Shown here: positions 5,445 to 50,781 of the stretch, piece after piece | Layout of the letters: every line of letters starts with the position of its first letter | Position numbering within the stretch: position 1 is the first letter of the stretch | DNA from: a virus | Reading direction: 5' to 3' (one strand) | IMG/VR virus record: IMGVR_UViG_3300045988_177154 | Coordinates: 32,001-96,000 of that record | DNA: 64,000 bases | Made by a program: the position numbers and the translations under genes | The notes under the pieces: generated by a model | What the model saw: only the letters and a program-made list of their open reading frames with translations | What the model was told of the DNA's origin: nothing | The model's database searches: none

Positions 5445-6236
5445 TTAAGCAGCTTCTTCTGAATGGTATTTCTTTTTATAAAGTTCTAATGCTTCTTCAT
5501 TTTCTTTATCTGTCTTGATTGGTGGAATGACTAAATTAAGAGTATCTTCAATACCATTTTCAGTTTTGTTTCTATCTATTCCTAAGCTATAAATATTTAC
5601 TACTCCAGCATTGTTGGAACGTATATTTAATTCAGAAATTTTCCTTTCAAAATCTGAATCACCATCATTGAATTTTTTGTTTTGATACCAAAGCGCATAA
5701 TGTACAAGTTCATGCTCAAAAATCGGTTGAACTATTCCAAAATCATTAAATTTTACCATAGCATATAGGAAAGGTTCGCTTATTAAGATTTGAGTAGCAT
5801 TTCTTTCTTCAAATAGGATTTTTTGATTTGGAGTCATATTAAGAAAAGAACCTGCTGAATAATTATTATATTCTGCTAAAAGGATTTTACTATTCCATTC
5901 AACACCAGGGAAATTCTTCTTTAGAAATTCTATGGCAAATGAATTGAGCTTGAGTTTTATTTCTTCCCATTTTTCTTTTGTTAGTAGTTCTTCATCTACT
6001 TTGTAAGAAGTAATCTTTTCAACTTTAAATTTTGCTTGTGATAATGATGGCTCAGAAATTGGAGAGGGGCTTACTAATTGATAATTTTTAGAATTATCAT
6101 CGAGAATGAAACTGATAACAAGGTATAAATAGCAAAGAAGAATTATAACAAATCCTACAGTTATGTCTTGAGCATTGCCACTGCTCATTAGATACATTGC
6201 TAAGAAATTTAGCAAAATCAATATAAGTTTTTTCAT
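5445..6236 (-). CDS. membrane-anchored SprT-like zinc metalloprotease
   Basis: N-terminal hydrophobic helices. EHELVHYALWYQNKKFNDGDSDFE is the same motif block as in 2882-3499. Confidence 0.65.
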   Translation of the reverse strand: MKKLILILLNFLAMYLMSSGNAQDITVGFVIILLCYLYLVISFILDDNSKNYQLVSPSPISEPSLSQAKFKVEKITSYKVDEELLTKEKWEEIKLKLNSFAIEFLKKNFPGVEWNSKILLAEYNNYSAGSFLNMTPNQKILFEERNATQILISEPFLYAMVKFNDFGIVQPIFEHELVHYALWYQNKKFNDGDSDFERKISELNIRSNNAGVVNIYSLGIDRNKTENGIEDTLNLVIPPIKTDKENEEALELYKKKYHSEEAA

Positions 6237-7922: not shown

Positions 7923-8083
7923 TATTAAAATAAAAAAGAAAGAGAAATTTTCTCTTTCTAGTAGATTTAAACCGAACCTAGCTCAATTTAAGATACCTGA
8001 CTGCGAATCATAGCTATTGTATCAAAAAGAGCTTTCAAAGTCAAGATTTACTTGTGATATACAAATTAAAAAGGAGTAAGTTA

Positions 8084-9316
8084 ATGGCTAAATATCATAT
8101 AACTCCAAGAGGCGAAGTTAAAAAATGTAATGCTAAAGTACATTGTCGCTATGGAGATTACAACCCTCACTTTGATGACCCAGTGACAGCTCAATTATTT
8201 GCTGATAATTGTTTTGATAGATTGAAATTTGACTCTACAATCAGAACTTTAGATACAAGTGGTTTTGATTTAAGAATGAAAAATAAAAATAGTTTACCAA
8301 GTAGAGTGAAAGATATAACTGGAGTAAAGCAAAGAGGTTTTGATTATGAATGTTACATGAGCTCTTGTTATGCTGAATCTCTAGGCCTTAGAAATGTTTT
8401 AGTGCAAGATAAAAATGGCTCATGGCATGCTATCAATCAAAACGGTGCTATTCCAGATATTGATGAAGAAAGAATAAAAAGCTTAATTGACAACGCTAAA
8501 CAAAGTTTAGAAAATGCTTATGATGTTGCTAATGAAACTAATTCAGAAAAATTCTGTCGTGCTATTTATTACAGTGACGATTCTGATTCATTATTCATTC
8601 AAACTGGAGCACCTGAGCTATTAGATGCAGCTGTTGTAGAAAATGGAGAAACTCAACTATTAGAAATCAAGAAAACTCACTCTAGTGGTGCTCAAACATT
8701 TGAAAGAACTTTAGGAATTGGCCACGATAGTTCTTTTGAATTAAGAGATGAAGATTACGATACTCTACACCCAGAAATCTTAGAACAAGTAGAGAAATTT
8801 AGAAATGATAATAGTACTAATCAATACAATCTAAAAGTTTCTAATTTTGTTGCTACTGAGCAATTCGTAAGAGATTATCAAAGAAGTGGAAGTTCTGAAT
8901 TTGTTTGTACAGATAAAAGGGGTAGAGCTATTTCAATAGATATGACTAGACCACCTGAAATTGTTGCTAAAGAATTAGTAAATAATGGATTTGTTACTAC
9001 TCTTAAAATCAGAACTAATCTAAATACTCGTAAATTAGACAGCAATGCTATATATAGATTAAGAGAAAATAAAGAAAACCTTTATACTGGTGACTATGTG
9101 AAAGCACCTGGTGGACATAGAGCTATTCCATTTGAAAACTTTGATAAATCTAAAATGACGAAAGTTAGAGGCAAAGTTAGAATTGGTGAATATATGTTGC
9201 CAGTTAAATGGGAAGATAAAGATAGCTTCACTGGCCCAATTACACTTGATAGAATGGAATATTTTGCTCCAGTTATGGGTGGCGATATTAAAAAAGTACG
9301 AGATGAAGAATACTAA
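8084..9316 (+). CDS. hypothetical protein with N-terminal Cys/His module and a possible PD-(D/E)xK-like motif
   Basis: Starts MAKYHITPRGEVKKCNAKVHC, a module shared with 28239 and 34432. Central ELLDAAVV...LLEIKK is a D...ExK pattern. Start set at the ATG with an AAGGAG RBS. Confidence 0.6.
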   Translation: MAKYHITPRGEVKKCNAKVHCRYGDYNPHFDDPVTAQLFADNCFDRLKFDSTIRTLDTSGFDLRMKNKNSLPSRVKDITGVKQRGFDYECYMSSCYAESLGLRNVLVQDKNGSWHAINQNGAIPDIDEERIKSLIDNAKQSLENAYDVANETNSEKFCRAIYYSDDSDSLFIQTGAPELLDAAVVENGETQLLEIKKTHSSGAQTFERTLGIGHDSSFELRDEDYDTLHPEILEQVEKFRNDNSTNQYNLKVSNFVATEQFVRDYQRSGSSEFVCTDKRGRAISIDMTRPPEIVAKELVNNGFVTTLKIRTNLNTRKLDSNAIYRLRENKENLYTGDYVKAPGGHRAIPFENFDKSKMTKVRGKVRIGEYMLPVKWEDKDSFTGPITLDRMEYFAPVMGGDIKKVRDEEY

Positions 9317-18981: not shown

Positions 18982-19581
18982 CTATTTTAGAACTTTAAAT
19001 TCAACTGTTGACGCTTTTAATTTTCTTGTTAAGGTGTTGTTATTCCAATTGTTTTCAATTTTATAGATAACTAAAGTTTTATGGCTTTCTTTTTCATATA
19101 AAACTTTAAAATAGTAATCGTAAGAATCATTTCCTTTGTAATATGCTTTTCTAGTAAAATCAACAACTAAGTCATTATAAAATAATCTTGTTAATTCTTT
19201 AAAAGGCTCATCTGATTTATAAGCTTTAAAAACTTTTTCAATAGGAACAAAATCATTTCCTAACTTAGTATCTTCTAATTTAACTGATTTTAAATCTTGC
19301 TCTTCAAAAGAATTGATTACATCATCTTTAGAAATATTAACAACAAGCAACTGCTCTTTTAAAAATGTTTCCATTTTTCGTTGGGGCATAAAAATGTCAG
19401 TTTTTTTACCGTTAATAACAAGTTGGAATTGTGTTGATTTTAATTTAGCGTAGCTAGAATTGCTTGAATCTAAATACCCAATTAAATTGATTTTATCTCC
19501 AACATTTAATCTCTTAGTTAATGTAGTTTTTTTGATAACTTCTTTTACAATATATAAATCCGTTTTAACTGTAATATTCAT
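18982..19581 (-). CDS. hypothetical protein (199 aa)
   Basis: Start moved to MNITVK (AAAGGGG RBS). The longer ORF-track start would run through a terminator hairpin. Confidence 0.55.
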   Translation of the reverse strand: MNITVKTDLYIVKEVIKKTTLTKRLNVGDKINLIGYLDSSNSSYAKLKSTQFQLVINGKKTDIFMPQRKMETFLKEQLLVVNISKDDVINSFEEQDLKSVKLEDTKLGNDFVPIEKVFKAYKSDEPFKELTRLFYNDLVVDFTRKAYYKGNDSYDYYFKVLYEKESHKTLVIYKIENNWNNNTLTRKLKASTVEFKVLK

Positions 19582-19684
19582 TCTATTACCCCTTTCTTTT
19601 TCTAATTTAATTATATAATAATTTAAGAAAAAGAGCAATATATAATTAAAAATAAAAAAGAACTTCATTTAGAAGTTCTTTCTT

Positions 19685-22438: not shown

Positions 22439-22867
22439 TCAATCTTTTGTTTTTAATCTTTTTAAAGTAGAATATAGAGAGCTTAATTTATGATAACTGT
22501 CATGTGTAAGTGTTTCATTCTCTGCAACAGTATTTATATTCCCTCTAATCCAATCAGCAACAGTATCACAATCTTTCAACAATTTACTTTGCTCAGCTTT
22601 AGTCAAAAGATGATTGTTTCTTTTTAGAATAATCAAAGCATGATTCACTTCAAAAGTAGAAAAACCCACCTCAAAAACCTTGAATAATCCATGCTCGAGA
22701 GCAAGTTCTATAATCTCTTTATTGAACTCATATTCAAATTGATTTACAAGATTGTAGGGTTTCTTACTTAAATAAGATAATTTATTTAATTTGTTTGTGC
22801 AGTCATTCAGAGTTATAGAATGAGGCTCTGCAATCAAAGAATGAAGAAACAGTCTATTAGTATCCAT
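22439..22867 (-). CDS. hypothetical protein (142 aa)
   Basis: ORF track. Behind promoter 22902-22930. Confidence 0.6.
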   Translation of the reverse strand: MDTNRLFLHSLIAEPHSITLNDCTNKLNKLSYLSKKPYNLVNQFEYEFNKEIIELALEHGLFKVFEVGFSTFEVNHALIILKRNNHLLTKAEQSKLLKDCDTVADWIRGNINTVAENETLTHDSYHKLSSLYSTLKRLKTKD

Positions 22868-22901
22868 TTTTTTATTTTACCTTTCAGTTTTCATTTGTAC
22901 T

Positions 22902-22930
22902 ATTATATAACATTTTTTAATTTTTATCAA
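22902..22930 (-). promoter_or_regulatory. sigma-A type promoter
   Basis: Minus strand reads TTGATA-17-TATAAT. Divergent from 22947-22975. Confidence 0.65.
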
Positions 22931-22946
22931 TTAAAAATTTTTATGA

Positions 22947-22975
22947 TTGAAAAATTAACATTTTTGTTATATAAT
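22947..22975 (+). promoter_or_regulatory. sigma-A type promoter upstream of the TnpA remnant and TnpB-like gene
   Basis: TTGAAA-17-TATAAT. Confidence 0.65.
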
Positions 22976-23202
22976 ATAACTATATTTATGAATATGAAAT
23001 AGAGGTTAGAAATGAAATTAGAAGCTTTATAACTACTAACAAAGAAAGATTAGTGGGATTTGGTTTTAAATATATAGAAGCTATATGTAATCCTCATAAT
23101 GTAGAAATAGTTGTAATACAATCAGAACAAGATAATAAATCAGTTGAACAAGAATTAACAGAAGATATTAAGAACTTATTAGCAACATTAGAAAAGGAGT
23201 AG
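22975..23202 (+). pseudogene. C-terminal remnant of an IS607-type serine-recombinase TnpA
   Basis: Frame with no ATG translates ...KERLVGFGFKYIEAICNPHNVEIVVIQSEQDNKSVEQELTEDIKNLLATLEKE*. This matches the conserved C-terminal end of IS607 TnpA (DRLxRFGFxYxE...ELxEDL). The catalytic N-terminal domain is absent. Confidence 0.55.
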
Positions 23203-23212
23203 TTATCAAATA

Positions 23213-24565
23213 ATGAGTAATGTATTTACGGTAACAACTGAATTAAAATTGAATAAAGAATATAATCAGTTGGTTGGTAAATACATTTCTGATTATATTG
23301 AAATATTCAATAAAATTCAGAGATTAACATTTCATAGAATTAAAAATTACTATATAAAAAATGGTAAAATAACTCAAAAAGATAGAAATATTATTCATGC
23401 TCAACTAAAAGAAGAATTTAATCTAACTAGTCGAGCTATTGATGCAATATTAAGTAATATGTTAGGTCGTTTTGAATCTATCAAAGAATTAAAGGAATTT
23501 GAAAGAAAAAGTTTAGAAAGAAAGATTTTTGCTCTTGAAAAAGAACTAACTAAATTAAAAGATGAAAGAACTTTACAAAGAATAAATTTAAATAACAATT
23601 TAAAAGATTTCAACTTTGTTAAATACAAAAATCTAAAAATAAAAATCTACTGGAAACAAAACAGATTAAATACTAAAAAGCAAAAACTTAAAAATCTTGA
23701 AAATGAAATTGAAACGAGTAAATATAAAGTATGTTTTGGCACTAAGAATTTACTACAAAAAGATTATAGCAAATTTATTAAGAAAAGAGATAGTGAAATC
23801 TATTTCTTAGGTAGAGCTGGCGATAAAGCTTGCAACTTCAATTTCCAAGTGGAATATAACTCTAAAACAAATCAATTCTATTTTAGAATTAGAAAAGAAA
23901 TTGACTTAGATAATGACAAATTCGTTTATGGCCAATTTCATTTTAATAATAAAAATTATACTAATTTATTAAAGAAGTTACTAAAAACCAAAGAAAGTGC
24001 TTTAACATATAGAATTAAGATAAAAAATAATCGAGTATTTCTCCAAATCATATACAACTTTGAGCATAACAAAGATTTATGTGTAACTAGAGATAGTTAT
24101 GGTGTAATTGGAGTAGATTTTAACAAAGGCTTTGTATCTGTAAGTGAAACAGATAAATACGGTAATTTAATAAACACTTTTAATATAGATTATCAATATA
24201 GTAAAGGTAATCAAACAACAAATGATTTTCAATATATAGCAACTAAATTAAAAGATTATTGCTTAAGAACTGGAAAAGATTTAGTTATAGAGAAACTTGA
24301 CTTTACTAAAAAGAAAGATAATTTAATAAGTAAGAAAGGTAAAAAATATAATGAAATGTTATCAACACTTGCTTATTCTAAATTTGATTCTATTATAACT
24401 TCTAAATGTGCTAAAAACAGAATTTTTTTACATAAAGTTAATCCGGCATGGACGAGTTGGATTGCGAAACGAAAATATTGTCTGAAAATGAAATTAAACA
24501 TACACTCTGGAGCTTCTTATGTTATTGCTCGTAGAGGTATGTTCTTAAAAGATAAAGTAAAATAA
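23213..24565 (+). CDS. tnpB: TnpB-like protein with degenerate RuvC-III and no zinc finger (possibly nuclease-dead)
   Basis: RuvC-I GVIGVDFN and RuvC-II LVIEKLDF are present. NPAWTS is followed by only about 35 aa ending NIHSGASYVIARRG, where D-x-NAA-x-NI is expected. No CxxC pairs. Confidence 0.75.
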   Translation: MSNVFTVTTELKLNKEYNQLVGKYISDYIEIFNKIQRLTFHRIKNYYIKNGKITQKDRNIIHAQLKEEFNLTSRAIDAILSNMLGRFESIKELKEFERKSLERKIFALEKELTKLKDERTLQRINLNNNLKDFNFVKYKNLKIKIYWKQNRLNTKKQKLKNLENEIETSKYKVCFGTKNLLQKDYSKFIKKRDSEIYFLGRAGDKACNFNFQVEYNSKTNQFYFRIRKEIDLDNDKFVYGQFHFNNKNYTNLLKKLLKTKESALTYRIKIKNNRVFLQIIYNFEHNKDLCVTRDSYGVIGVDFNKGFVSVSETDKYGNLINTFNIDYQYSKGNQTTNDFQYIATKLKDYCLRTGKDLVIEKLDFTKKKDNLISKKGKKYNEMLSTLAYSKFDSIITSKCAKNRIFLHKVNPAWTSWIAKRKYCLKMKLNIHSGASYVIARRGMFLKDKVK

Positions 24566-24760
24566 CATAGTATTTCTACTTAACCAGAATAAGACCAAGT
24601 GATTGATGTCTGGCTCTGTGTAGAAATTCAAAAATAAAATAACTTTTCATTATCTTTGAAGTTGTAATTCCTACGTGGTGAAACTAAAAAGAAAATGAAA
24701 TTAAAATGTTCATCTGAATTAAGATGAAATAGTCATTGTGGTCACGGACGAAAAACAATC
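24566..24760 (+). ncRNA. candidate omega/re-RNA scaffold of the TnpB-like gene 23213-24565
   Basis: Non-coding 3' flank with nested complementarity: ATTTCTAC 24571-24578 pairs with GTAGAAAT 24621-24628, CCAGA...TCTGG lies inside that stem, and CATCT-GAATTA-AGATG lies further 3'. Confidence 0.35.
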
Positions 24761-24769
24761 TTGAATTAT

Positions 24770-25036
24770 GGAATATACACTATTCTATATTTCTTGTACC
24801 ACATTCCACAAGAATTTCAAATAAAATACCCGTTAGAATTAGTCTTTAAATACCCTAATCTTGTTTCTTCTTTGAGTGACTCACAAATCTCTAATATTCC
24901 AAGCGCTAATCATTTACTTATGATTGGCTACAAAATCAAAGATTGGAATTATGACTATTTTGATGCTAGAGAAATTATGAGAGCAAGAGAAATATTTAAA
25001 AATGGCACCTATCAAGTAATTGAACATAAAAAGTGA
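24770..25036 (+). pseudogene. C-terminal fragment of a paralog family F gene
   Basis: Translation YHIPQEFQIKYPLELVFKYPNLVSSL...LLMIGYKIKDWNYDY...AREIFKNGTYQVIE aligns with the last ~85 aa of the ~330-aa family. The N-terminal ~240 aa are missing. Confidence 0.7.
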
Positions 25037-25077
25037 TAAGTCCTTTAGTTTTTACTTGTTAGATTGATGAAATAAAC

Positions 25078-25187
25078 AATTCTAAGCTGCTTTACTGCAA
25101 ATCCGATACATTGCAGTTTCTCAGTTATAGCGTTTTATTAGTGACGATATAACGACATTCAAATTCAGTCTAAGCAATTCTAAAAAT
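25078..25187 (+). repeat. dispersed intergenic repeat, copy C
   Basis: AATTCTAAGCTGCTTTACTGCAAATCCGATACATTGCAG...TAGTGACGATATAACGACATTCAAATTCAGTCTAAGCAAT. Confidence 0.8.
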
Positions 25188-25235
25188 CAACATTTCAAAC
25201 AGTTGAAACTATTTTTATTTTTTATATTTTTATTG

Positions 25236-25264
25236 TTGACAAATTATAAACTTTGTTGTATTAT
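25236..25264 (+). promoter_or_regulatory. sigma-A type promoter
   Basis: TTGACA-17-TATTAT. Confidence 0.7.
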
Positions 25265-25313
25265 ATAAATATAGAAAAGGAAATTAACAACAAAAGAAAT
25301 GGAGTTTTTTACT

Positions 25314-25490
25314 ATGACGAAAGAAGCTATTAAGAAAAATATTGCAACTCTTGCTAAATCACAAGGATTCTATGGGCGACTTCTTAATCAAATTGAAGAA
25401 GATGAAGCTGTCCTTGATTACCTTCATGAGAAATCAATTCAAGAAGGCTGGAAAGATGCTGTAGATATGGTTCTAGCTATTGAATGCTAA
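25314..25490 (+). CDS. hypothetical protein (58 aa)
   Basis: Start moved to MTKEAIKK (GGAG RBS 9 nt upstream). Behind promoter 25236-25264. Confidence 0.5.
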   Translation: MTKEAIKKNIATLAKSQGFYGRLLNQIEEDEAVLDYLHEKSIQEGWKDAVDMVLAIEC

Positions 25491-31698: not shown

Positions 31699-32259
31699 AT
31701 GAAATATTTTGATTGCTGGTTGAGGCGGATTGATAAGAAAGAATATGCAAGAATACAGCAAAGAAAAGAATTATATGAAAAAGGTTTAGGTAGAGTTTTC
31801 GTTTTTCTTGATGTGGACGGAGTGTTAAATATTAACCGAACTGATGATAAATTTACTTATATAACTTCATCTACGGTATGGAAGATTAGAAATGAAGTTC
31901 TAGCTTGGATAAAAGAAATGAGTAACTTTATCAATGTACAATTCATCTGGTTATCAACTTGGCAAAATGAATGTAATGAGATTAACAAAGCTCTGAATAT
32001 TGAAGCTTTTCCAATTTCAAATGAATACATTAACCCTAAGGAAATGGACTCATTAACTATCAAAAAGAAACAAATAAATAAGTTGAGGAGCTTATATCCA
32101 TTAGCTAAAATTGTTTCCATTGATGATGATTTAAAGAAAACTGAAGTTAGTTCAGATTTTCATTTACAGCCTAAATCTGAATTAGGCTTAACACATGAAG
32201 ATTTAGTTATTTTAACTAATAAAATTAAAAAATACTTAGAACATAGAAAGGTATATTAA
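31699..32259 (+). CDS. HAD-superfamily phosphatase-like protein
   Basis: FLDVDGVLN (DxDG motif I). Start set at MKYFDCW (GGAGAA RBS), because the first ATG sits at the predicted transcription start of promoter 31639-31667. Confidence 0.5.
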   Translation: MKYFDCWLRRIDKKEYARIQQRKELYEKGLGRVFVFLDVDGVLNINRTDDKFTYITSSTVWKIRNEVLAWIKEMSNFINVQFIWLSTWQNECNEINKALNIEAFPISNEYINPKEMDSLTIKKKQINKLRSLYPLAKIVSIDDDLKKTEVSSDFHLQPKSELGLTHEDLVILTNKIKKYLEHRKVY

Positions 32260-36629: not shown

Positions 36630-37622
36630 GTGATTATTGAGGGGTATTTGTTTTCTGAAAAAGCAAGAATGATAAACAATATTTATTATGGTATTGTTGA
36701 ATATGATAACAGTAATTGCATTTATTACAATATTACTGATTATGATTTTGCTCTACTGAAATTAAACACTTTTGTGTATAAAGTAGAAGTTGATTCAAAT
36801 GATGTTTATTCTTTAACACCAAGCCATGTTTCGGCCATTAAATACCGAGTAAAAGAAGAAATAAATTTTAATGAATGGATTAAAGCTGCTCAATTTACTG
36901 AAGATGAATTTGGTCAAGATAAAATTGAATGGGATTCAATTATTGATGGTTCTATGGTAAGTGATGAAGTTTTAAGTATCTATAATAAAATTATGCGCTG
37001 TCAACCATGGTCGTTATCATTTGCTCAAATCATAAAACTTCATGCAATCTTAAATCAAAAGACATATGAGCTTCCAATCTTAAAACTACTAATGTGGAAT
37101 AAGGAATATGCTAGAGTTTATGAATTTTATCATAGAAAATATGAAATAGATTATAATGTGTATATTGTTGTAAGAGAGGAGTTTGTAGAACGTGAAGCTC
37201 TATATGGGTCAAAAATTTTTGAAAGTATAAACAGTAAAGATAATAGTATTCAATTTCCAAATATTTTTTACTTGATAGAAACAAGGAAATTTACTCAAAA
37301 TGAATTTGAAGTATGTTGGCTGAAAAATATCTGTCGCCTAAGTGATGAAAATAAAAGAACCTATATTAGAGCTGCTTTGATAGCAAATTACAACATAACA
37401 CCTTTACATAGAGATATATATCCAGTTGCTCTTATGCTTAAATATCCGGAATTAGCAACAAAATTAACTCGTAACAATATTGGTGACCCTAGTTGCATTT
37501 CAAGACTACTTATGCTTGGATATAAAATAAAAGGAAAAGATTATAAAGGAAAATATATTTCTATTTTAAATGCTAGAAAAATCATGAAAAATGATGAATA
37601 TAAATTTATAGAAATTGATTGA
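36630..37622 (+). CDS. paralog family F protein (~330 aa)
   Basis: GTG start. Shares YLFS, YKVEVDSNDV, KLHAILNQKTYELP, RKFTQNEFE, YP.LA and LLMLGYKIK blocks with the 44789-50781 array. Confidence 0.7.
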   Translation: MIIEGYLFSEKARMINNIYYGIVEYDNSNCIYYNITDYDFALLKLNTFVYKVEVDSNDVYSLTPSHVSAIKYRVKEEINFNEWIKAAQFTEDEFGQDKIEWDSIIDGSMVSDEVLSIYNKIMRCQPWSLSFAQIIKLHAILNQKTYELPILKLLMWNKEYARVYEFYHRKYEIDYNVYIVVREEFVEREALYGSKIFESINSKDNSIQFPNIFYLIETRKFTQNEFEVCWLKNICRLSDENKRTYIRAALIANYNITPLHRDIYPVALMLKYPELATKLTRNNIGDPSCISRLLMLGYKIKGKDYKGKYISILNARKIMKNDEYKFIEID

Positions 37623-39162: not shown

Positions 39163-39310
39163 ATTGTTGCTTACATCTGTAACTTATTGTAATAATGAAT
39201 AAGTGAGTTGTAAGGTAATACCTCATGTAGAGGACGAACTCCTAATTCAACTTGAACCGTTGAATCAAGTACATTCGTTAGAAATGACACAATTTGACCA
39301 TTTCCTTTAA
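39163..39310 (-). ncRNA. candidate omega-RNA scaffold overlapping the 3' end of the TnpB-like gene
   Basis: Position is typical for TnpB omega-RNA. A second non-coding copy with compensatory hairpin changes exists at 52353-52491. Confidence 0.5.
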
Positions 39311-40667
39311 GCTTATTTACTTTTTCCTTAATTTCTTTTTTATTTGATTTTGGTTTAACTCTTTTAGTCTTTGCCTTTTTTGGTAAAGATTTTTTGAGCT
39401 TAATATTAGTAGAACGAATCGCAATATTGATAGCAGCTAATAAATCTCTATCAATTTTACCAGTCGTAAATTCAATAGTTCTATCATTAACTACTCCTAT
39501 TTCTTTCGTTATTGGGTGCTCCTTACTAGTATTAAATGCAGAAACCTTTTTTACCTCAATTCCATACATAGTGGCTTTCTCTATAATTTTAGAATGAATT
39601 TGAGAATGATTCCATTTACCACCTTGTGAATTTAACCAAGATAAATCTTCAATATGAATTGTTTTACACTTCTGCTCTAATGCTAAATTTACAATTTCGT
39701 TTGACAAAAGCTTTGCTTGATAATCTTTTGTGTTAATAATTTTATTAGAAATATTTGAATAAAGATTTTTCCAAATTTCATATTTAGATTGATTTGTTAA
39801 CCTTAAAGCTTCATAAGATTTAAGTTTATCATATAAGATTTGTTTATTTTCATAAAGTTTATTGATTTTATATTCTGTTTCTTGGCTTCGTTTTGTGTTG
39901 ACAAATTCATTACTGAAATTACCTTTTCTATCAACAACAACAGAACTAAATAATTTAATTTTACCTATATCCACACCTAAGATTTTATCTTCTAACACAT
40001 AATCCCCCACTTCATATTCATAAGAGCAAATACCTATATATTGATTATCTCTTTTACGTTTAATAAATCTAGGCTTCGCAATTCTGCCTGTAAATCTTTC
40101 ATCTATACTACTTGGAAAGATTATTTCATATTCAATCCAATCTTTTTTGCTCACTTTTATTTCACAAATATTACCTTGTTTCATTCTGAATATTTGCTTT
40201 TCTGAAATAGTATAATCAAGATTGAATACAGCGCTTCGTGCTAATTCGGGTATGGAATTATTACGTTTAATATTGGCAATTCTACTTCTTGTTGGGTAAA
40301 GTTTTAATTTGTGTAATGAATTAAATAAATCTTCATTTATGTTAAAATCATTTTTAACTAATTGATTCCAAATGATGATTGCTTCTTGTTTTGACTTTAT
40401 TTCTCGTCTGATGTTTTCAAACAAGATATACGAGTGCCAGGTTTTATTATGCAACGGCCAGTCTTTTATTCGGAATTTAAGACTATCCCTCATATCCCTC
40501 CAAACATCGCCTCTGAGTTTAGATAAATCAATTTTATCCAAGAGAGCTCTTGTTTCATCATTAGAGAGAATAAAATTTAACTCATTTTGTAAGAAATCAT
40601 AAATAGGTATAAGTTCTGATGGCATATTTATATTAAAACTTTTCCAATGAACTTTTTTCTTTTTCAT
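39171..40667 (-). CDS. tnpB: TnpB-like RNA-guided nuclease homolog lacking the zinc-finger cysteines
   Basis: RuvC-I ILGVDIGK, RuvC-II TIHIEDLS and RuvC-III KIDRDLLAAINIA. The segment between AFNTS and DRD has no Cys. Lys-rich tail follows. Confidence 0.8.
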   Translation of the reverse strand: MKKKKVHWKSFNINMPSELIPIYDFLQNELNFILSNDETRALLDKIDLSKLRGDVWRDMRDSLKFRIKDWPLHNKTWHSYILFENIRREIKSKQEAIIIWNQLVKNDFNINEDLFNSLHKLKLYPTRSRIANIKRNNSIPELARSAVFNLDYTISEKQIFRMKQGNICEIKVSKKDWIEYEIIFPSSIDERFTGRIAKPRFIKRKRDNQYIGICSYEYEVGDYVLEDKILGVDIGKIKLFSSVVVDRKGNFSNEFVNTKRSQETEYKINKLYENKQILYDKLKSYEALRLTNQSKYEIWKNLYSNISNKIINTKDYQAKLLSNEIVNLALEQKCKTIHIEDLSWLNSQGGKWNHSQIHSKIIEKATMYGIEVKKVSAFNTSKEHPITKEIGVVNDRTIEFTTGKIDRDLLAAINIAIRSTNIKLKKSLPKKAKTKRVKPKSNKKEIKEKVNKLKGNGQIVSFLTNVLDSTVQVELGVRPLHEVLPYNSLIHYYNKLQM

Positions 40668-43771: not shown

Positions 43772-44731
43772 ATGACTAAAACAATTAAAGGATTTATTAA
43801 AACTTTCAACAAGCACGAATTAGGAAAAGAATACAGCAAAACAAATTCTTATTTAGCTGATGCTATTAGATTTGAATTAAAAGATGTTTACAATGCTGGT
43901 TCAGATTATTCTATCATCTATCCATACATTTATGAAGTAGAAGCTAATGTTGAAGATGTTTGGAACATTTCAAAAGGACAAACATGGTTGCCTGATTATT
44001 TCCAAACTACAAAAGCTGTTGCAGTTCGTGAAGTCTCATATTTAGAATTAGTACAAGCTATTGATTTAACTTCTTCAACAAAAGAAAAATTTGAAAAAAT
44101 CTATAATGGCGATTTAACTAAAGAAGAATTTGAAACTACTTGGGCTTCTTTAACTAAGAGAAGTTTTGAAGCATTGGGCCACAATCAACGTTTTCTATAT
44201 ATTGCTTGTTTATCTCAAGATAAATATGAATTAACAAAACCTGAAAAGGAATTGTCAGAAACAACTTTAATGCTTCATGCAAAATATGGTAAATTGTTTA
44301 ATAAAGATTTACGAGTAAGTTCAAAAGTCAAAATGAACATTGCAACAGAAAATGAAATCATTAACGCTCTTGAAACAGACTTATTTGATGTTCCAAACAT
44401 TCTTGAAAATTTAGTTGAAACAGAAAATTATGATTTTGATTTTGTTCTTAAGTTATTAAAAGAATCAAATTACTTAATTTTTAATAAATTAACAACAGCT
44501 TATGGATATAACACTGGTCGTTGGGAATTTGATAAAATTGATACTAACAGAGCTAAAGCAGAATCTTATTTAAATCCAATTAAAGCTTTCAATGATTACA
44601 AAGACCATGAAGAGTTAATCTTGAAAGGATTATTATTGAATAACTTTTTAATCAAAGGAGCAGATTATTCAGAATTTGAATCTATTCTAAAAATTAAAGA
44701 AGAATTAGAAGTGGAATTAAAAACTTTATAA
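43772..44731 (+). CDS. divergent member of paralog family F
   Basis: Shares the PYIYEVEANVEDV block and overall length with family F. The rest is diverged. Confidence 0.55.
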   Translation: MTKTIKGFIKTFNKHELGKEYSKTNSYLADAIRFELKDVYNAGSDYSIIYPYIYEVEANVEDVWNISKGQTWLPDYFQTTKAVAVREVSYLELVQAIDLTSSTKEKFEKIYNGDLTKEEFETTWASLTKRSFEALGHNQRFLYIACLSQDKYELTKPEKELSETTLMLHAKYGKLFNKDLRVSSKVKMNIATENEIINALETDLFDVPNILENLVETENYDFDFVLKLLKESNYLIFNKLTTAYGYNTGRWEFDKIDTNRAKAESYLNPIKAFNDYKDHEELILKGLLLNNFLIKGADYSEFESILKIKEELEVELKTL

Positions 44732-44788
44732 GAAAAGAACAACCTAATGGTTGTTTTTCTTATGTCAAAAAAGAAAGGAGTTATTAAA

Positions 44789-45784
44789 ATGATTATTGAT
44801 TGTTATGTGTTTTCAGATGTAGCACTCAAACTAAATCACACTTATTATAACATTGATGATTACAAATTACTATTATATAACTTAAAGGATTATCGAGTTG
44901 ATTCGTTTTCAATCTTTACTTTTATTTATAAAGTAAAAGTAAATTCAGATGATGTACATTATCTTGGTAAATATGGAGTATATTCACTTAAGTATCAAGT
45001 AGTAGAAGAAGTTCCTTTTGGAGATTTTGTAGCAAAACTTTCACTTGGGGGATTAGAAAAAGCTGGACTAATGTCTATTATCAAAGGTACTATGCCCGAA
45101 GATAAAGCTATTAAAAAATATGAAGATATTCTAACTCTAAATAAGTATGGGTATTCATTAACTTTTATTCAAGCCCTCAAATTTCATGCTATACTAAGCC
45201 AAAAGAAATATGAACTACCAATCCTTTATGTAGATGAACAAGGTTGGTATTTAGTTAGATTATTTGAATATTACAATAGAAAATATGAAGCAAAAAATAC
45301 TTTGTCAAATTCTACTAATCATTGTGTAGAACAAGAAAGGATATTAGGTTCAAAAAAATTTGAGGAACATTTTGACATTCAAAATGCTACACTTGCGAAT
45401 GAAAGAGAACTTCAGACTTTTTATGATTTAATAAAAGGAAGAAAGCTAACACAAGAGAAATTTGAGCAGTGTTGTGCTGAATTTATGAATTTATTAGACG
45501 ATGATTATAGAAAGGAATATTTAGCAAAAATAGTTGTATTTTCCAATTATGAAATACCTGAAAAGTATAAAGATATATTTTTACCAGAAGCTGTATTTAA
45601 ATACCCAGATTGGATAAAAGACTTAAAAGAAGAGCATATCTCTTGGCAATATGCTGATGTAACAAGATTCCTTATGATTGGATATAAAGTGAAAAATGGT
45701 AATTACAACCTAGAATGGGCAAATTCAATTATGAATGCTAGAAGCATTTTAAAGAACGACAATTACAAATATATAGAAATTTAA
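44789..45784 (+). CDS. paralog family F protein
   Basis: MIIDCYVFSD start (AAAGGAG RBS). Family blocks are present. Confidence 0.7.
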   Translation: MIIDCYVFSDVALKLNHTYYNIDDYKLLLYNLKDYRVDSFSIFTFIYKVKVNSDDVHYLGKYGVYSLKYQVVEEVPFGDFVAKLSLGGLEKAGLMSIIKGTMPEDKAIKKYEDILTLNKYGYSLTFIQALKFHAILSQKKYELPILYVDEQGWYLVRLFEYYNRKYEAKNTLSNSTNHCVEQERILGSKKFEEHFDIQNATLANERELQTFYDLIKGRKLTQEKFEQCCAEFMNLLDDDYRKEYLAKIVVFSNYEIPEKYKDIFLPEAVFKYPDWIKDLKEEHISWQYADVTRFLMIGYKVKNGNYNLEWANSIMNARSILKNDNYKYIEI

Positions 45785-45792
45785 TTTAAAAA

Positions 45793-45820
45793 AGCAACTA
45801 AAAAGTTGCTTTTTATTTTT
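45793..45820 (+). terminator. intrinsic terminator
   Basis: AGCAACT-AAAA-AGTTGCT plus a T run. Confidence 0.75.
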
Positions 45821-45833
45821 TTACAAAAATGTG

Positions 45834-45862
45834 TTGACAAACTAAAAATCATATTATATAAT
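45834..45862 (+). promoter_or_regulatory. sigma-A type promoter
   Basis: TTGACA-17-TATAAT. Confidence 0.8.
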
Positions 45863-45901
45863 ATAACTACAATAAAGAAATGAAATGAGAGATAAACAAA
45901 A

Positions 45902-46681
45902 ATGGAAATTGCAAAACAATACCACGCAAAAATCAATACAGCCGGAGTTGCTTCAGCTTATAATATTTCTACTGTAACTCGAACTCTTAGCCAGGCAGTA
46001 AAAGATGCTAATCTTGCACTTCATTCAGTAGAAGTACTAACAGAAGTTCCAACAGATAACAAATTAAAAGCAGAAGTACTTGCTGCTCATACTTATCGAG
46101 TAACATGGCAAGGAAAACTAGACATTGAAGTGATTCTCCTTGTTAAATTAGTAAATGGTGCTCAAGTACTAACTATTGATGATGATTTTGCTAATATTGA
46201 ATTGACTAATTCAATTACTATTGAACCACAAGGGCTTATCCGTATGGTTGAAAATGGTGAATTATTCCTTGAAGCTGAATACCAACGTGGATTTGTTTGG
46301 AGCCACGAACACAAAGAAGAATTTTTGCTGGATTGGATTAAAGGTGGAGTTATTATTACTCCTTACCTTGTAAGTTATTACAATGGTGATAACCACATTT
46401 ACGAAGTTCTTGATGGCAAACAACGTTTACAAACAGTTTATGAATTTCTAACAAACAAAATTGCTGTTAAAGGATTGTTGTTTGAAGAATTGCTAGACTA
46501 TGATAAACGCAAAATCCTTAATCGTAGAATTGTAGGCTTGACTATGACTCAAAAATATGGTGACAACGCATATGAGCGCCCAGACATGAAAACTCTTGTA
46601 AATGCTTTCGTGAATTTCAATAAAGGAATTACAGTTGATGAAGAAGTAATCGCCAAAGCAAAAGAATTGATTGAAGAATAA
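45902..46681 (+). CDS. DUF262 / ParB-like nuclease-superfamily domain protein
   Basis: EYQRGFVW ... VLDGKQRLQT is the DUF262 (GmrS-like) signature. No DUF1524/HNH half. Confidence 0.65.
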   Translation: MEIAKQYHAKINTAGVASAYNISTVTRTLSQAVKDANLALHSVEVLTEVPTDNKLKAEVLAAHTYRVTWQGKLDIEVILLVKLVNGAQVLTIDDDFANIELTNSITIEPQGLIRMVENGELFLEAEYQRGFVWSHEHKEEFLLDWIKGGVIITPYLVSYYNGDNHIYEVLDGKQRLQTVYEFLTNKIAVKGLLFEELLDYDKRKILNRRIVGLTMTQKYGDNAYERPDMKTLVNAFVNFNKGITVDEEVIAKAKELIEE

Positions 46682-46704
46682 GCAACCCCACGGTTGCTTT
46701 TTTC
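46682..46704 (+). terminator. intrinsic terminator
   Basis: GCAACC-CCAC-GGTTGC plus a T run. Confidence 0.7.
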
Positions 46705-46753
46705 TTTTAAAAGTTATATAATATAATAAAGAGCGAAAGAAAGAGGTATGAAA

Positions 46754-47743
46754 TTGTTTATTGATTGTTATTTCTTATCAAACATTGTTAGAAAACCTGA
46801 CCATATTTACTATACTAATTATGATTATATGTTTGGCGAATTTTTCTATTTTGATTTAAACCTTTGTAATTTAGACAATATACGTTTTAACACGTACCCT
46901 TATAAAGTTAGAGTTGACTCAAATGATGTGTTTTATATTGCTAATAATGGCTTAAGAGCACTCAAATTTCAAATAGTAGAAGAAGTTAATATTTTAGATT
47001 GGATTGAAGCTTCATCTTTGAAAGATAGAGCAAAGAGTCATTTGAAATCAATTTGTAATGGTTCTGTACTTCAAGATAAAGTGTTAGAATTTTATGATAA
47101 AACTATTATAACTCCAACTGCTTTATTGACTACAGCTCAAATTTTTAAATTGCATGCTATTTTGAGCCAGAAAAAATATGAATTGCCTACAAGAGTAATC
47201 ACTAATGGAAATAAAAGCTATTTGCGAGCTTATGAATTTTATGGCAGAGAATATGAATTTGATTCTAATCATAAACCTTTTTTCAAAGTGTTTGAAGCTG
47301 AAGCTGCCTTGGGGTCTAAAAGATTTGAATATATTGAAAATGAAGATAGTGAAATCCTTATGTCAGATGTGTCAAGTTTTTTAAAATTAGTAGCATCAAG
47401 AAAATTAACTCAAAATCAATTTGAGTATTGTTGTATGTACAGTCCTTTTTTAACTACAGCTGACAAAAAGAAATTTGTTAATACAGCATTACGAGCAAAT
47501 TATGAAATTCCTCATGAGGGCAGACACTTATTCTTTCCCGAAATCATATTTAAACACCCAAGTTGGGTAACAGAATTAAAGACGAAACATTTAGACAATG
47601 ATTATGCTAGAGCTAGATTACTCTTGTTAGGCTATAAATTGAAAGATTATAATTATCATCATTCTTATTGGGCTACTAATATTGAAAACACTAGACGAAT
47701 TTTTAAAAATGCCGTGTATCAATATATAGAACTTGATGATTAG
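46754..47743 (+). CDS. paralog family F protein
   Basis: TTG start 7 nt after AAGAGG gives (M)FIDCYFLS, aligned with the other family N-termini. The ORF-track ATG at 46748 is only 1 nt from the RBS. Confidence 0.65.
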   Translation: MFIDCYFLSNIVRKPDHIYYTNYDYMFGEFFYFDLNLCNLDNIRFNTYPYKVRVDSNDVFYIANNGLRALKFQIVEEVNILDWIEASSLKDRAKSHLKSICNGSVLQDKVLEFYDKTIITPTALLTTAQIFKLHAILSQKKYELPTRVITNGNKSYLRAYEFYGREYEFDSNHKPFFKVFEAEAALGSKRFEYIENEDSEILMSDVSSFLKLVASRKLTQNQFEYCCMYSPFLTTADKKKFVNTALRANYEIPHEGRHLFFPEIIFKHPSWVTELKTKHLDNDYARARLLLLGYKLKDYNYHHSYWATNIENTRRIFKNAVYQYIELDD

Positions 47744-47759
47744 ATAGAAAGAGAAAACT

Positions 47760-48740
47760 ATGAAAATTAAATGCTATTTATTTACAGGTATAGCAAAACA
47801 AGAAAATCATACTTATTATTCATTAGGAGATAATCGAGGTTCAAGATTTTATTATAATTTGAGAGAGGGACTCAATAGAGAAGAAATTAAAATAGCTCCA
47901 TTTGTTTATGAAGTAGAGTTAGACTCAGAAGATATATGTACAATTACTTCTTATTATTTAGAAACAACAAAATTTAAATTAGTAAGAGCAGTTGAATTTA
48001 GAGAAGTTGTAGAAGTTTTAGATGTTTCAAGTAGAACTCGAAACGAATTGAATGCTATCCTTAGATGTGTGAGTGATAAAGCACAAATCATTCAACAATA
48101 TAAAAAATTGCTTTCAAAAGATTATAGTGATTTATCTAGGATAGAGTTTTATAAATTTATTGCTATTATAAGTCAAAAACATTATAAATTACCACTAATT
48201 GAATTTTCTTGCTTTAGAGCATTTAAATATGTTCGGCTATTGGAATTTTATAATCAGCCACATAGATATGCTCTTGCTGGAAGGGGTTATAGTTTTGTAG
48301 CTTATAATAAAGAAAAATTTTATGGAAGTAGAATATTTGAAAATCTGTCAGATTGTACTATAAATGATTTGCTTAGAGAACACGATATTAGGGTACTTTT
48401 ACAGACTAGGAAATTGTCGCAGAAAAAATTTGAAGAATATTGTGAATATAAGTTTAAAAATAAAGATAAGATTTATAATGCAGATGAATGTGTGGGGGCT
48501 GGATATGAAATTCTACCAAAATATAAAGAGCAATTCTACCCCTATATAATCTATTCTAATCCTGAGTTAGCATTAGATTTGGTAAAAAAAGGCTTGAGCA
48601 CCAATGATTATCAAACTTTATTACTTTTAAGAAAAGGATATAAAATCAGAGATTTTGATTATGATAATAATTATAGAGTCTTTGCTACAACACAAAAAGC
48701 CCAAAAGATTTTCATGAAAAATGATTATAAATATATTTAA
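47760..48740 (+). CDS. paralog family F protein
   Basis: MKIKCYLFT start. Family blocks are present. Confidence 0.7.
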   Translation: MKIKCYLFTGIAKQENHTYYSLGDNRGSRFYYNLREGLNREEIKIAPFVYEVELDSEDICTITSYYLETTKFKLVRAVEFREVVEVLDVSSRTRNELNAILRCVSDKAQIIQQYKKLLSKDYSDLSRIEFYKFIAIISQKHYKLPLIEFSCFRAFKYVRLLEFYNQPHRYALAGRGYSFVAYNKEKFYGSRIFENLSDCTINDLLREHDIRVLLQTRKLSQKKFEEYCEYKFKNKDKIYNADECVGAGYEILPKYKEQFYPYIIYSNPELALDLVKKGLSTNDYQTLLLLRKGYKIRDFDYDNNYRVFATTQKAQKIFMKNDYKYI

Positions 48741-48757
48741 GAGAAAGGATAAGAATT

Positions 48758-49741
48758 ATGGCTGTTAAATGCTATTTATTTACAAGTGTGGCTAGACAAT
48801 TAAATCATACTTATTACTCATTAGAATATAATAAATCTTTATACTTTTACCATAATTTAAATGATTATCATAAAGAAGTGAATAAAATTCTATTAAATCC
48901 CTTTGTTTATGAAGTAGAAGTTGAGCCTAAAACAGTGATTGCTTGTGATTCCTTAGGTTTAGTTGCAACGGAATTTAAACTTGTTAGAGAAGTAGAACTT
49001 ACAGAACTTATCAATGCTTATAAATTTTCAATAAAAACGAAAAATGAAATCAATTCTATTCTTAATGGGCTTGCTGATTCATCAGAAGTAATTTCTTTAT
49101 ATAAAAGATTTTTTAAAAAATCTAAATGGGACCTGTCTAAAATTGAAAAATTCAAATTCTTAGCTATATTGAGTCAAAATCACTATAAATTACCTGTTAT
49201 GAAGATTCGTGAAAATTCTGGTATGGAATATGTTAGGATATTGAAATTCTTTAACAAACCTTACATACCCGCCTTTAGAAGCAATGATAGTACGTTTGAT
49301 AGATTTATTGAAATAGAAGAACTTTATGGAAGCAAAGATTTTGAAACTGGTGTAGAATTACCTATGAAAGAACTGGTTTGCCATATTAACTTGAAACAAT
49401 ATATAGAAACAAGGAAATTATCCCAAGAACAATTTGAAGAGTATTGTGAATATATGTTTACTGAAGAAAGAACAATATATTACACTTCTCATGCTATAGC
49501 AGCTGGATATAAAATTTTACCAAAATACAAAAAACATTTTTATCCATATTTAATTTATTCTGACCCCGAAATGGCATTAGAATTGCTTAATAAAAGGAAT
49601 TTAACTCGTACTGCAGTTATTTATTTCTATGAAAAGAATTATAAAATAGGTGATTACAATTACTCTAATGATAAAGTTAGAGAAACAAAAGCAATCTTTG
49701 TAAAAGAAGATGATTATAAATGTATTGAAGTAGCAACTTGA
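48758..49741 (+). CDS. paralog family F protein
   Basis: MAVKCYLFT start. Family blocks are present. Confidence 0.7.
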   Translation: MAVKCYLFTSVARQLNHTYYSLEYNKSLYFYHNLNDYHKEVNKILLNPFVYEVEVEPKTVIACDSLGLVATEFKLVREVELTELINAYKFSIKTKNEINSILNGLADSSEVISLYKRFFKKSKWDLSKIEKFKFLAILSQNHYKLPVMKIRENSGMEYVRILKFFNKPYIPAFRSNDSTFDRFIEIEELYGSKDFETGVELPMKELVCHINLKQYIETRKLSQEQFEEYCEYMFTEERTIYYTSHAIAAGYKILPKYKKHFYPYLIYSDPEMALELLNKRNLTRTAVIYFYEKNYKIGDYNYSNDKVRETKAIFVKEDDYKCIEVAT

Positions 49742-49797
49742 TAGTTGCTTTTTCTTTTTGTTTATTATATAATATAATAGAGCGAAAGGAGTTAATT

Positions 49798-50781
49798 ATG
49801 ATTATAAAATGCTATTTGTTTTCAGATAGAACTAGACAATTAGGTCATACTTATTATTCATTAGGAATGGGAGATTATTTGTATTTTGAGCTTAGCTCAT
49901 ACCAAGATTATTTTCACATTGGTGACCCATTTGTTTACGAAGTAGAAGTTGATACAGACAAAATATTGTATTGTGATAGTGAAAGTGTACACTCTATTGA
50001 GTACAAGATAAGTAGAGTAATCAAATTTGAAGAATATATTTTTACGTTTGAGTTTCCAAAAGATGATTTAAAAGAATTACTTAATATACTTGATGGAAAT
50101 ATTGACAAAAATGAAATGATAGAATTTTATACTGCAATCATTAGTAAAGATGTTTACAAAGTAAATAGGTTTGAGCAATTAAAACTTTTTGCAATATTAA
50201 ATCAAACAAAATATGAGCTGCCAGAAGTAACAATAGAAAAAGAATTTCAAATGGATTACTATGTTAAGCTTTTAATTTATTACAATAAACCTTATCAAGC
50301 TATTTGTAAACATTCCGCCAAAATTTCTGGGTTTAGAAAAGAACTTAATAAGCAGAGAATGCGGGGAACTACTACTTTTGAAACAATTTCAGATGAAATC
50401 ACCGAAAGATTAGCTTATAATTATTTTTTAGATGAATATATACTAAATAGACAACTTACTCAAGAACAATTTGAAAGTTTATGTGAGTACTTCAAGTGGA
50501 ATACACATATTTTTAAATTTAGAATAAAACTTAGTTCAATTGCAGCTGGTTACAAAATTCTACCAGAACATAGAAGTCTTTTTTATCCTTTTGTGCTTTA
50601 TCATGGAATAGAAGATAATTTGGATATAATTGACCGTGAGAAAAAGCCTGATGAATTATTAAAGATTTTATTTAACTGCGGTTATAAATTTAAAAATGTT
50701 GATTATAGCGACATGCCTTCACATGATAAAATTACTGAAGCAAAAATCATCTTTCAAAAAGGATTTAAATATATAGAATAA
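49798..50781 (+). CDS. paralog family F protein
   Basis: Start moved to MIIKCYLFS (AAAGGAG RBS). Confidence 0.7.
   Translation: MIIKCYLFSDRTRQLGHTYYSLGMGDYLYFELSSYQDYFHIGDPFVYEVEVDTDKILYCDSESVHSIEYKISRVIKFEEYIFTFEFPKDDLKELLNILDGNIDKNEMIEFYTAIISKDVYKVNRFEQLKLFAILNQTKYELPEVTIEKEFQMDYYVKLLIYYNKPYQAICKHSAKISGFRKELNKQRMRGTTTFETISDEITERLAYNYFLDEYILNRQLTQEQFESLCEYFKWNTHIFKFRIKLSSIAAGYKILPEHRSLFYPFVLYHGIEDNLDIIDREKKPDELLKILFNCGYKFKNVDYSDMPSHDKITEAKIIFQKGFKYIE

Follow-up and report, generated by a model that had tools for sequence, protein, structure and literature searches.

Five major clades of TnpB proteins have been defined. One of them, RIIIr-4, carries a conserved His in place of the RuvC-III Asp, keeps the RuvC-I Asp and the RuvC-II Glu, and has no C4 zinc finger (Altae-Tran et al. 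2023, PNAS, PMC10691335). The clade is enriched in viruses and predicted to be active, some of its members are linked to a serine recombinase, and its authors suggested an altered substrate specificity (PMC10691335). At the IS607 element (IStron) of Clostridium botulinum, the transposon-adjacent motif (TAM) of TnpB, TGGG, and the scaffold end, TCGG, were shown experimentally to have the recombinase core dinucleotide in common, and the scarless donor joint is a substrate that TnpB cuts (10.1101/2023.11.20.567912). TldR proteins are defined by conserved promoter-directed guides and stable gene partners (Wiegand et al., 10.1101/2023.11.30.569447). Here, a locus with a 450-amino-acid (aa) TnpB is described in a 64,000-nucleotide (nt) stretch of viral DNA (IMG/VR record IMGVR_UViG_3300045988_177154, positions 32,001 to 96,000; hereafter the window, with position 1 as its first letter). 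The locus is the transposase-less half of an IS607 element in a jumbo phage, the TnpB and guide RNA of which would probably act as an RNA-guided homing nuclease.

The catalytic residues of the 450-aa protein were located by profile-profile alignment (hhalign, 97.5% probability) with five canonical TnpBs from the same phages, including the 498-aa TnpB of the window. RuvC-I (GVDFN, Asp302) and RuvC-II (VIEKLD, Glu360) line up with those of the canonical proteins, and His431, in NIHSGASYVIARRG, is aligned with their invariant RuvC-III Asp. Two residues of the canonical Asp-Glu-Asp triad are present and the third position is occupied by His. No CxxC pairs are seen anywhere in the protein and only 35 aa follow NPAWTS. 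The initial annotation, made from the sequence, had listed the retained RuvC-I and RuvC-II motifs, the replaced RuvC-III Asp, the missing CxxC pairs and a remainder of about 35 aa after NPAWTS; alignment and sequence check bear out all of these, with no acidic residue at the RuvC-III position. Its explanation that RuvC-III and the zinc finger were lost by C-terminal truncation or decay of this copy has to be given up, as the same state is found clade-wide. A search of 1.84 billion cluster representatives gave 1511 relatives (106 at E<=1e-30). The full-length ones are mostly of 430-490 aa, their alignments reach the last residues of the query, and their C-termini share K-L-N-x-H-x-[GA]-A-[SA]-[YF]-V-I-A-R-R-G. 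Conservation was assessed on the query and 114 representatives of >=380 aa (115 sequences, the distant relatives being 26-51% identical). Asp302 is present in 114 of these, Glu360 in all 115 and His431 in 114; the Asp-Glu-His state is kept down to 26% identity, and none of the 115 representatives has a CxxC between RuvC-II and the C-terminus. Since the three residues and the absence of the zinc finger are conserved across the representatives, the short C-terminus is a family trait and not a truncation.

The window TnpB matches RIIIr-4 in having His for the RuvC-III Asp, the RuvC-I Asp and RuvC-II Glu, no zinc finger and a viral host genome. It is provisionally assigned to this clade by its match to the published clade features. 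The archaeal sub-branch of RIIIr-4 differs in having a ribbon-helix-helix (RHH)/MazE partner; the window locus is without one, and the context here is an IS607 element in jumbo phages. The best 120 protein clusters are all of 447-451 aa at 90-93% identity, on metagenomic contigs of up to about 335-355 kb. On IMG/VR viral contigs of 200-400 kb, 72 loci of the family were found, often several per contig.

Profile matches in NCBIfam were confined to the C-terminal third of the protein (guided_TnpB, E 5.6e-9, aa 336-433); TIGR01766 scored 35 bits against a cutoff of 32, and the Pfam TNB match was below threshold. A PDB profile search with the family profile gave a marginal Cas12m match (E 0.005) and coiled-coil noise only, and structure prediction was therefore needed. 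In the AlphaFold2 model, which is of high confidence (predicted local distance difference test, pLDDT, 93.1; predicted template modelling score, pTM, 0.83), the last helix begins at His431. Its Foldseek matches are Cas12f1, AsCas12f, Cas12k, CasX, Cas12m, Fanzor2 and RuvC resolvases, and against BFVD they are phage, giant-virus and IS607 transposases. The predicted fold is thus TnpB/Cas12f-like with a split RuvC domain. While Cas12f, Cas12k and Fanzor2 are alike in overall predicted fold (E 2e-9 to 6e-4), their identity to the window TnpB is only 10-14%, and the latter has neither a CRISPR array nor a TNB zinc-finger insertion. Translation table 4 (UGA read as Trp), considered for this sequence of 25-30% GC, was not required, as table 11 already gives a full-length open reading frame (ORF) for the gene and for its homologs. 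A 564-aa 'TnpB-family transposase' of Thermus phage Lalka8 (L088, PQ109075.1 52571-54741) has the same zinc-finger-less C-terminal architecture (VNPAYTS...AAAYVIGRR). It carries Asp where the window family has His, is longer, and lies directly before an annotated CRISPR repeat region.

The non-coding 238-nt region that follows tnpB (Table 1) shows 89% column identity over nine copies, with long invariant blocks, and conservation drops sharply after ...CTTGTACCACA. Beyond this boundary at least eight unrelated flanks are found. The divergence of the region (0.05-0.13) is 3-8 times slower than that of the synonymous sites of tnpB (dS 0.27-0.63), and its indels are not multiples of three. The fold of this strand had a z-score of -2.56 relative to shuffles, and the consensus forms four helices, one of which pairs the 3' terminal GUACCACA with UGUGGUCA. 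A conserved 3' non-coding region at the right end followed by a variable guide, as in the TnpB superfamily, is present at this locus. In intact relatives ATATACA(A/T)TATTCTACA is common to the two ends, with matching ACA/CA junctions; the window copy has the right end only. The subterminal repeat, being present in both left and right ends, is presumed to be the TnpA binding site. No Rfam match was obtained in 22800-25400 and no group I intron was detected there.

Similar 3' regions are present in more distant relatives. In each of two sister groups, of 40% and 34% protein identity, a separate conserved region of ~220-240 nt ends in ...TTACGGT, with an internal ACCGTAA partner and unrelated flanks after the end. 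In sister group B (L015-L075, ~40% TnpB identity), which is inserted at 33 or more different sites in jumbo-phage contigs, 33 of the 55 predicted pairs of the ~225-nt 3' RNA show compensatory changes. Homology between the group B RNA and the window RNA is no more than suggested, by a weak partial match of the group B covariance model. A search by nhmmer with the 3' profile of the close group retrieved the close group only. Three close copies, L008 (5406-5434), L012 (from 5203) and L013 (from 5414), have an insert of ~100 nt with TTGA(A/C)T-17-TATAAT between the tnpB stop and the 3' region. The window copy has no such insert; in L008, L012 and L013 its promoter fits separate transcription of the RNA. 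In L009 (about 5558-5627) the right end of an otherwise complete IS607 is split by a short insert with a TTGACA...TATAAT-like promoter, after which the terminal ~60 nt resume.

The insertion target of the window copy is one member of family F, a paralog family of which at least six complete copies are found at other places in the window. In L002, L004 and L005 the family-F gene is uninterrupted, and the sequence reads ...GATTATGACA up to the insertion point and T(T/C)CCACAAGA... from it. These unoccupied alleles equal TGACA followed by the right flank of the window copy, with 1-3 mismatches over 20 nt. In IMG/VR the window-type site was unoccupied in 4 contigs and occupied in 1. The reverse arrangement is seen for the sister copy of L001-L006, whose empty target lies in the window (Table 1) and differs from the right flank (guide) of that copy by one mismatch over 20 nt, where 0.03 matches are expected by chance. 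The two elements are reciprocally present and absent between related phages. Directly 5' of the left ends of three intact elements stand AGACA, TTACA and TGACA, and the right end finishes with CACA. In all, five independent sites have [T/G]ACA directly 5' of either the left end or the guide match, and in three of them it is TGACA. The left end of L008 begins with TGAAATAG, and the right flank of that copy opens with the same 8 nt; L009 and L013 show a weaker likeness of this kind, which may reflect a target preference of the recombinase.

The arrangement resembles that of the IStron, where a serine-recombinase TnpA is followed by TnpB and the right end coincides with the end of the guide RNA scaffold. 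As with TGGG and TCGG in the IStron, the TAM-like [T/G]ACA and the scaffold end CACA of the window family share their last bases. IStron-like excision is scarless, so the donor joint can serve as a homing target. The window TnpB differs in having Asp-Glu-His and not Asp-Glu-Asp, no zinc finger and no detected group I intron, and this copy is without TnpA and the left end.

Table 1. Features of the TnpB locus and of one related target site, with window coordinates
Feature	Coordinates	Strand	Remarks
Sigma-70-like promoter TTGAAA-17-TATAAT	22947-22975	+	11/12 positions; now the nearest promoter upstream of tnpB
Family-F gene stub	23012-23032	+	ATG and 5 codons, then a stop codon made by the deletion junction
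tnpA 3' remnant (serine recombinase)	23028-23202	+	no start codon; catalytic N-terminal part gone; NF033518 match
Ribosome-binding site (RBS) of tnpB, AAGGAG	23194-23199	+	13 nt upstream of the ATG; read from sequence; kept in all copies
tnpB	23213-24565	+	450-aa ORF; RIIIr-4-type by features; Asp302, Glu360, His431; no zinc finger
Right transposon end and predicted omega-RNA scaffold	24566-24803	+	238 nt; non-coding, conserved, structured
Subterminal repeat ATATACACTATTCTATA	24773-24789	+	motif in every right end and also in left ends (L008, L009, L013)
Predicted guide TTCCACAAGAATTTCAAATA	24804-24823	+	first sequence past the conservation boundary; differs at every insertion site
Family-F 3' remnant	24804-25036	+	about aa 251-328 of 328; 75% identity (tblastn) to the 328-aa protein of L002
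Empty target of the sister copy (L001-L006)	19375-19399	-	TGACA then TTTTTATGCCCCAACGAAAA; inside an intact 228-aa gene (18982-19668)

The remains of the transposase gene and of the interrupted host gene were examined in the flanks of tnpB. The frame 22975-23199 matches the IS607 transposase model NF033518 (E 3.4e-12, profile positions 116-172 of 187), and PHROG 6620, an annotated transposase family, also matches the stub. By tblastn the stub corresponds to aa 126-180 of an intact phage TnpA, and the C-terminal ends of TnpA in L008, L009 and L013 align with it too. A complete serine-recombinase TnpA with an N-terminal MerR-like helix-turn-helix (HTH) is absent from the window; as only the last ~57 codons are retained, the copy is a remnant and not a complete IS607. 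Homology to the flank of the intact family-F gene stops at 23027. At the deletion junction, 23027/23028 (GAAGCTT/TATAAC), codon 6 of the family-F gene runs straight into mid-tnpA sequence, with short microhomology (GCTT/TATA). The 5' half of tnpA and the left end are, on these alignments, deleted from the window copy. The promoter sequence of Table 1 is also found upstream of the intact 328-aa gene in L002, L004 and L005 and by this comparison belonged natively to the disrupted family-F gene. The AT-rich window shows no enrichment of promoter-like sites taken as a class (15 found, 18.9 expected). On the other side of the element, the downstream frame of 91 codons is the 3' end of a family-F gene, and the family-F 3' remnant aligns to L002, L004 and L005 by blastn. 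An array of family-F paralogs of ~320-347 aa, 28-38% identical to the 328-aa protein, occupies 36630-37622 and 43772-50781 (+) of the window; these paralogs match no Pfam or PHROG family.

The decayed IS607-like element, the TTGAAA-17-TATAAT promoter upstream of it and the RBS provided by the stop region of tnpA, all recognised in the initial annotation, were found as described there, AAGGAG directly adjoining the TAG stop codon (23200-23202). Two of its boundaries had to be moved. The start-less frame 22975-23202 was correctly taken for the C-terminus of an IS607 TnpA, but the homology begins only at about 23028. Likewise the 3' flank does lie in a 5'-truncated family-F member, but this begins at 24804 and not at 24770.

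Other copies of the element bear on its mobility and on the loss of the transposase. In L008, L009 and L013 a TnpB 88-91% identical to that of the window lies behind a conserved left end and an IS607 TnpA of full length, in which both an HTH and the YARVS serine motif are present. Locus L007 has the same truncated layout as the window. The L001-L006 copy of the gene, 91% identical, is found at a different place inside a different gene, again without tnpA and with tnpB behind a phage promoter; here the left end and all of tnpA were lost by a separate deletion at a 9-nt microhomology, GTTATCAAA. In L010 the left end is kept and tnpA is lost internally. The loss of tnpA with retention of tnpB and the right end in separate copies indicates that such loss has happened repeatedly. 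The close copies have at least 8 different right flanks, in jumbo-phage contigs. Neighbouring genes differ from one insertion site to another, and no stable gene partner of tnpB was found across the sites compared. A 19-mer search for further left ends gave no new intact copies.

Selection on the gene was assessed from substitution rates. The ratio of nonsynonymous to synonymous divergence (dN/dS) of tnpB is 0.09-0.15 in all pairs, including those without tnpA. The data fit continuing selection on the window TnpB and its guide RNA. The flank and the gene tell different histories, however: 22860-23212 of the window (upstream flank and tnpA stub) is about 98% identical to L007 3648-4003, whereas the tnpB genes are only 92.6% identical (dS 0.34). 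This mismatch suggests recombination or gene conversion among tnpB copies, and it blurs the argument for selection on the window copy alone. The dS between window and L007 was considered as a clock for the loss of tnpA and rejected, as a flank more similar than the gene implies recombination among copies. These observations bear on whether the locus is a functionless, decaying relic, whose ORF would be intact through a recent deletion or through conversion from active copies. The missing TnpA and left end would agree with a relic, as would the flanks that are far more alike than the gene. Such a relic is nevertheless improbable in view of the uniform length of the best 120 clusters, the dN/dS of about 0.1 in every pair, tnpA-less pairs included, the conservation of the non-coding 3' region as well, and the persistence of two independent tnpA-less loci across many assemblies.

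The homing reading, which we prefer, can be set out in order. An IS607-family element inserted into one of the family-F paralog genes of a jumbo phage. Deletion at the short microhomology then took out the left end together with ~125 codons from the start of tnpA and some 735 bp of the host gene, leaving tnpB directly behind the family-F promoter. The tnpB transcript would carry the ~240-nt 3' scaffold to 24803 and the adjacent flank as a guide, and TnpB would bind this scaffold-plus-guide RNA. The complex would recognise TGACA followed by TTCCACAAGA..., which is the unoccupied family-F allele of related phages; its predicted cleavage target is TTCCACAAGAATTTC preceded by TGACA. In a co-infection the unoccupied allele would be cut, and repair from the occupied genome would copy the element in. 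Without TnpA and the left end the copy has lost the ability to transpose, while spread and retention through homing would still be possible.

Several observations weigh against the action of this locus as a homing nuclease. No report of a RIIIr-4 TnpB cleaving DNA was found in the literature searched, and a screen of 59 TnpB orthologs reported activity for a RuvC-II-rearranged member and nothing on RIIIr-4 (PMC10278001). The exchange of Asp for His, without an Asp three residues further on, might mean a reduced or altered activity. An intact ORF could also be accounted for, without selection on the window copy, by gene conversion from transposase-linked copies. For the RNA, covariation within the close group is thin, with double changes at only 2 pairs, and the covariance model of group B gave no match to the window RNA with default filters and a weak partial match of 10.4 bits unfiltered.

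The protein may instead be an RNA-guided enzyme of altered chemistry, in which Asp-Glu-His nicks one strand or cuts single-stranded DNA or RNA, possibly as a weapon against competing phages. A conserved non-canonical triad implies function, though not necessarily cleavage of double-stranded DNA (dsDNA), and an altered substrate specificity was suggested by the authors of the clade. Some TnpB orthologs, moreover, process their own RNA and are inactive in dsDNA TAM screens. The genomic behaviour of the family is nonetheless that of homing TnpBs, with a precise right-end boundary, a TAM-like motif and occupied and empty alleles, and no data call for a different substrate. We consider such an enzyme possible but unlikely. 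Rather less likely still is a more specific proposal, in which the Asp-Glu-His, zinc-finger-less TnpBs of jumbo phages would have an altered chemistry (nicking, action on single-stranded DNA or RNA, or binding only) and the repeated independent loss of TnpA, with tnpB and its RNA retained behind phage promoters, would mark an early stage of domestication towards a phage-versus-phage exclusion weapon or a regulator.

A domesticated regulator of the TldR type, nuclease-dead, bound to a guide RNA and repressing a phage or host promoter, had been put forward in the initial annotation in place of a transposon nuclease. TldRs are likewise TnpB-derived and phage-borne, with a non-canonical RuvC-III, no zinc finger and an adjacent region resembling a guide RNA. 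The position of the window copy behind a phage promoter, without TnpA and the left end, would suit a regulator, as would the second locus (L001-L006), which independently lacks tnpA and keeps tnpB behind a phage promoter, and the silence of the searched literature on RIIIr-4 nuclease activity. TldRs, however, are recent offshoots of Asp-Glu-Asp TnpBs with decayed sites and no transposon ends, and have fixed partner genes (fliC, oppF) and conserved promoter-targeting guides. At the present locus the His is conserved clade-wide together with Asp and Glu and is not a recent decay. The right end is intact and complete IS607 elements carry closely similar TnpBs. The guide varies with each insertion and equals the local flanking coding sequence, and the neighbours differ between sites. 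Nor does the guide point to a promoter within the 64-kb window, where it has no match within 3 mismatches other than its own site. With its clade-wide catalytic state, transposon ends, site-dependent guides and no fixed partner gene, the locus fails as a TldR, and there is little chance that it is one.

The window as a whole is phage-like, encoding a Dda-like helicase, a transglycosylase, RNA ligases, a methylase and SfsA and YpsA family proteins, and it has no close match among cultured phage genomes. The second TnpB of the window (498 aa, 39171-40667, -) is unrelated to the 450-aa protein. Its RuvC-III motif, DRDLLAAINIA, is canonical. Pfam matches a TNB domain in it (E 1.1e-8), there are no cysteine pairs in this segment, and no TnpA homolog was found beside the gene. 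A 420-aa ORF with a GTG start (8054-9316, +) runs in the opposite direction to all neighbouring genes; it shows no relationship to either TnpB and has no Pfam or PHROG match.

The locus adds no new kind of system, the RIIIr-4 variant having been described already. For this major TnpB clade no published activity test was found in the literature searched, and the present phage lineage supplies a compact protein of 450 aa without a zinc finger, a scaffold with a defined end, naturally occurring guides, a candidate TAM and matched occupied and empty alleles. The locus also shows what becomes of TnpB elements in giant phage genomes, where they are multi-copy, recently mobile and repeatedly losing their transposase.

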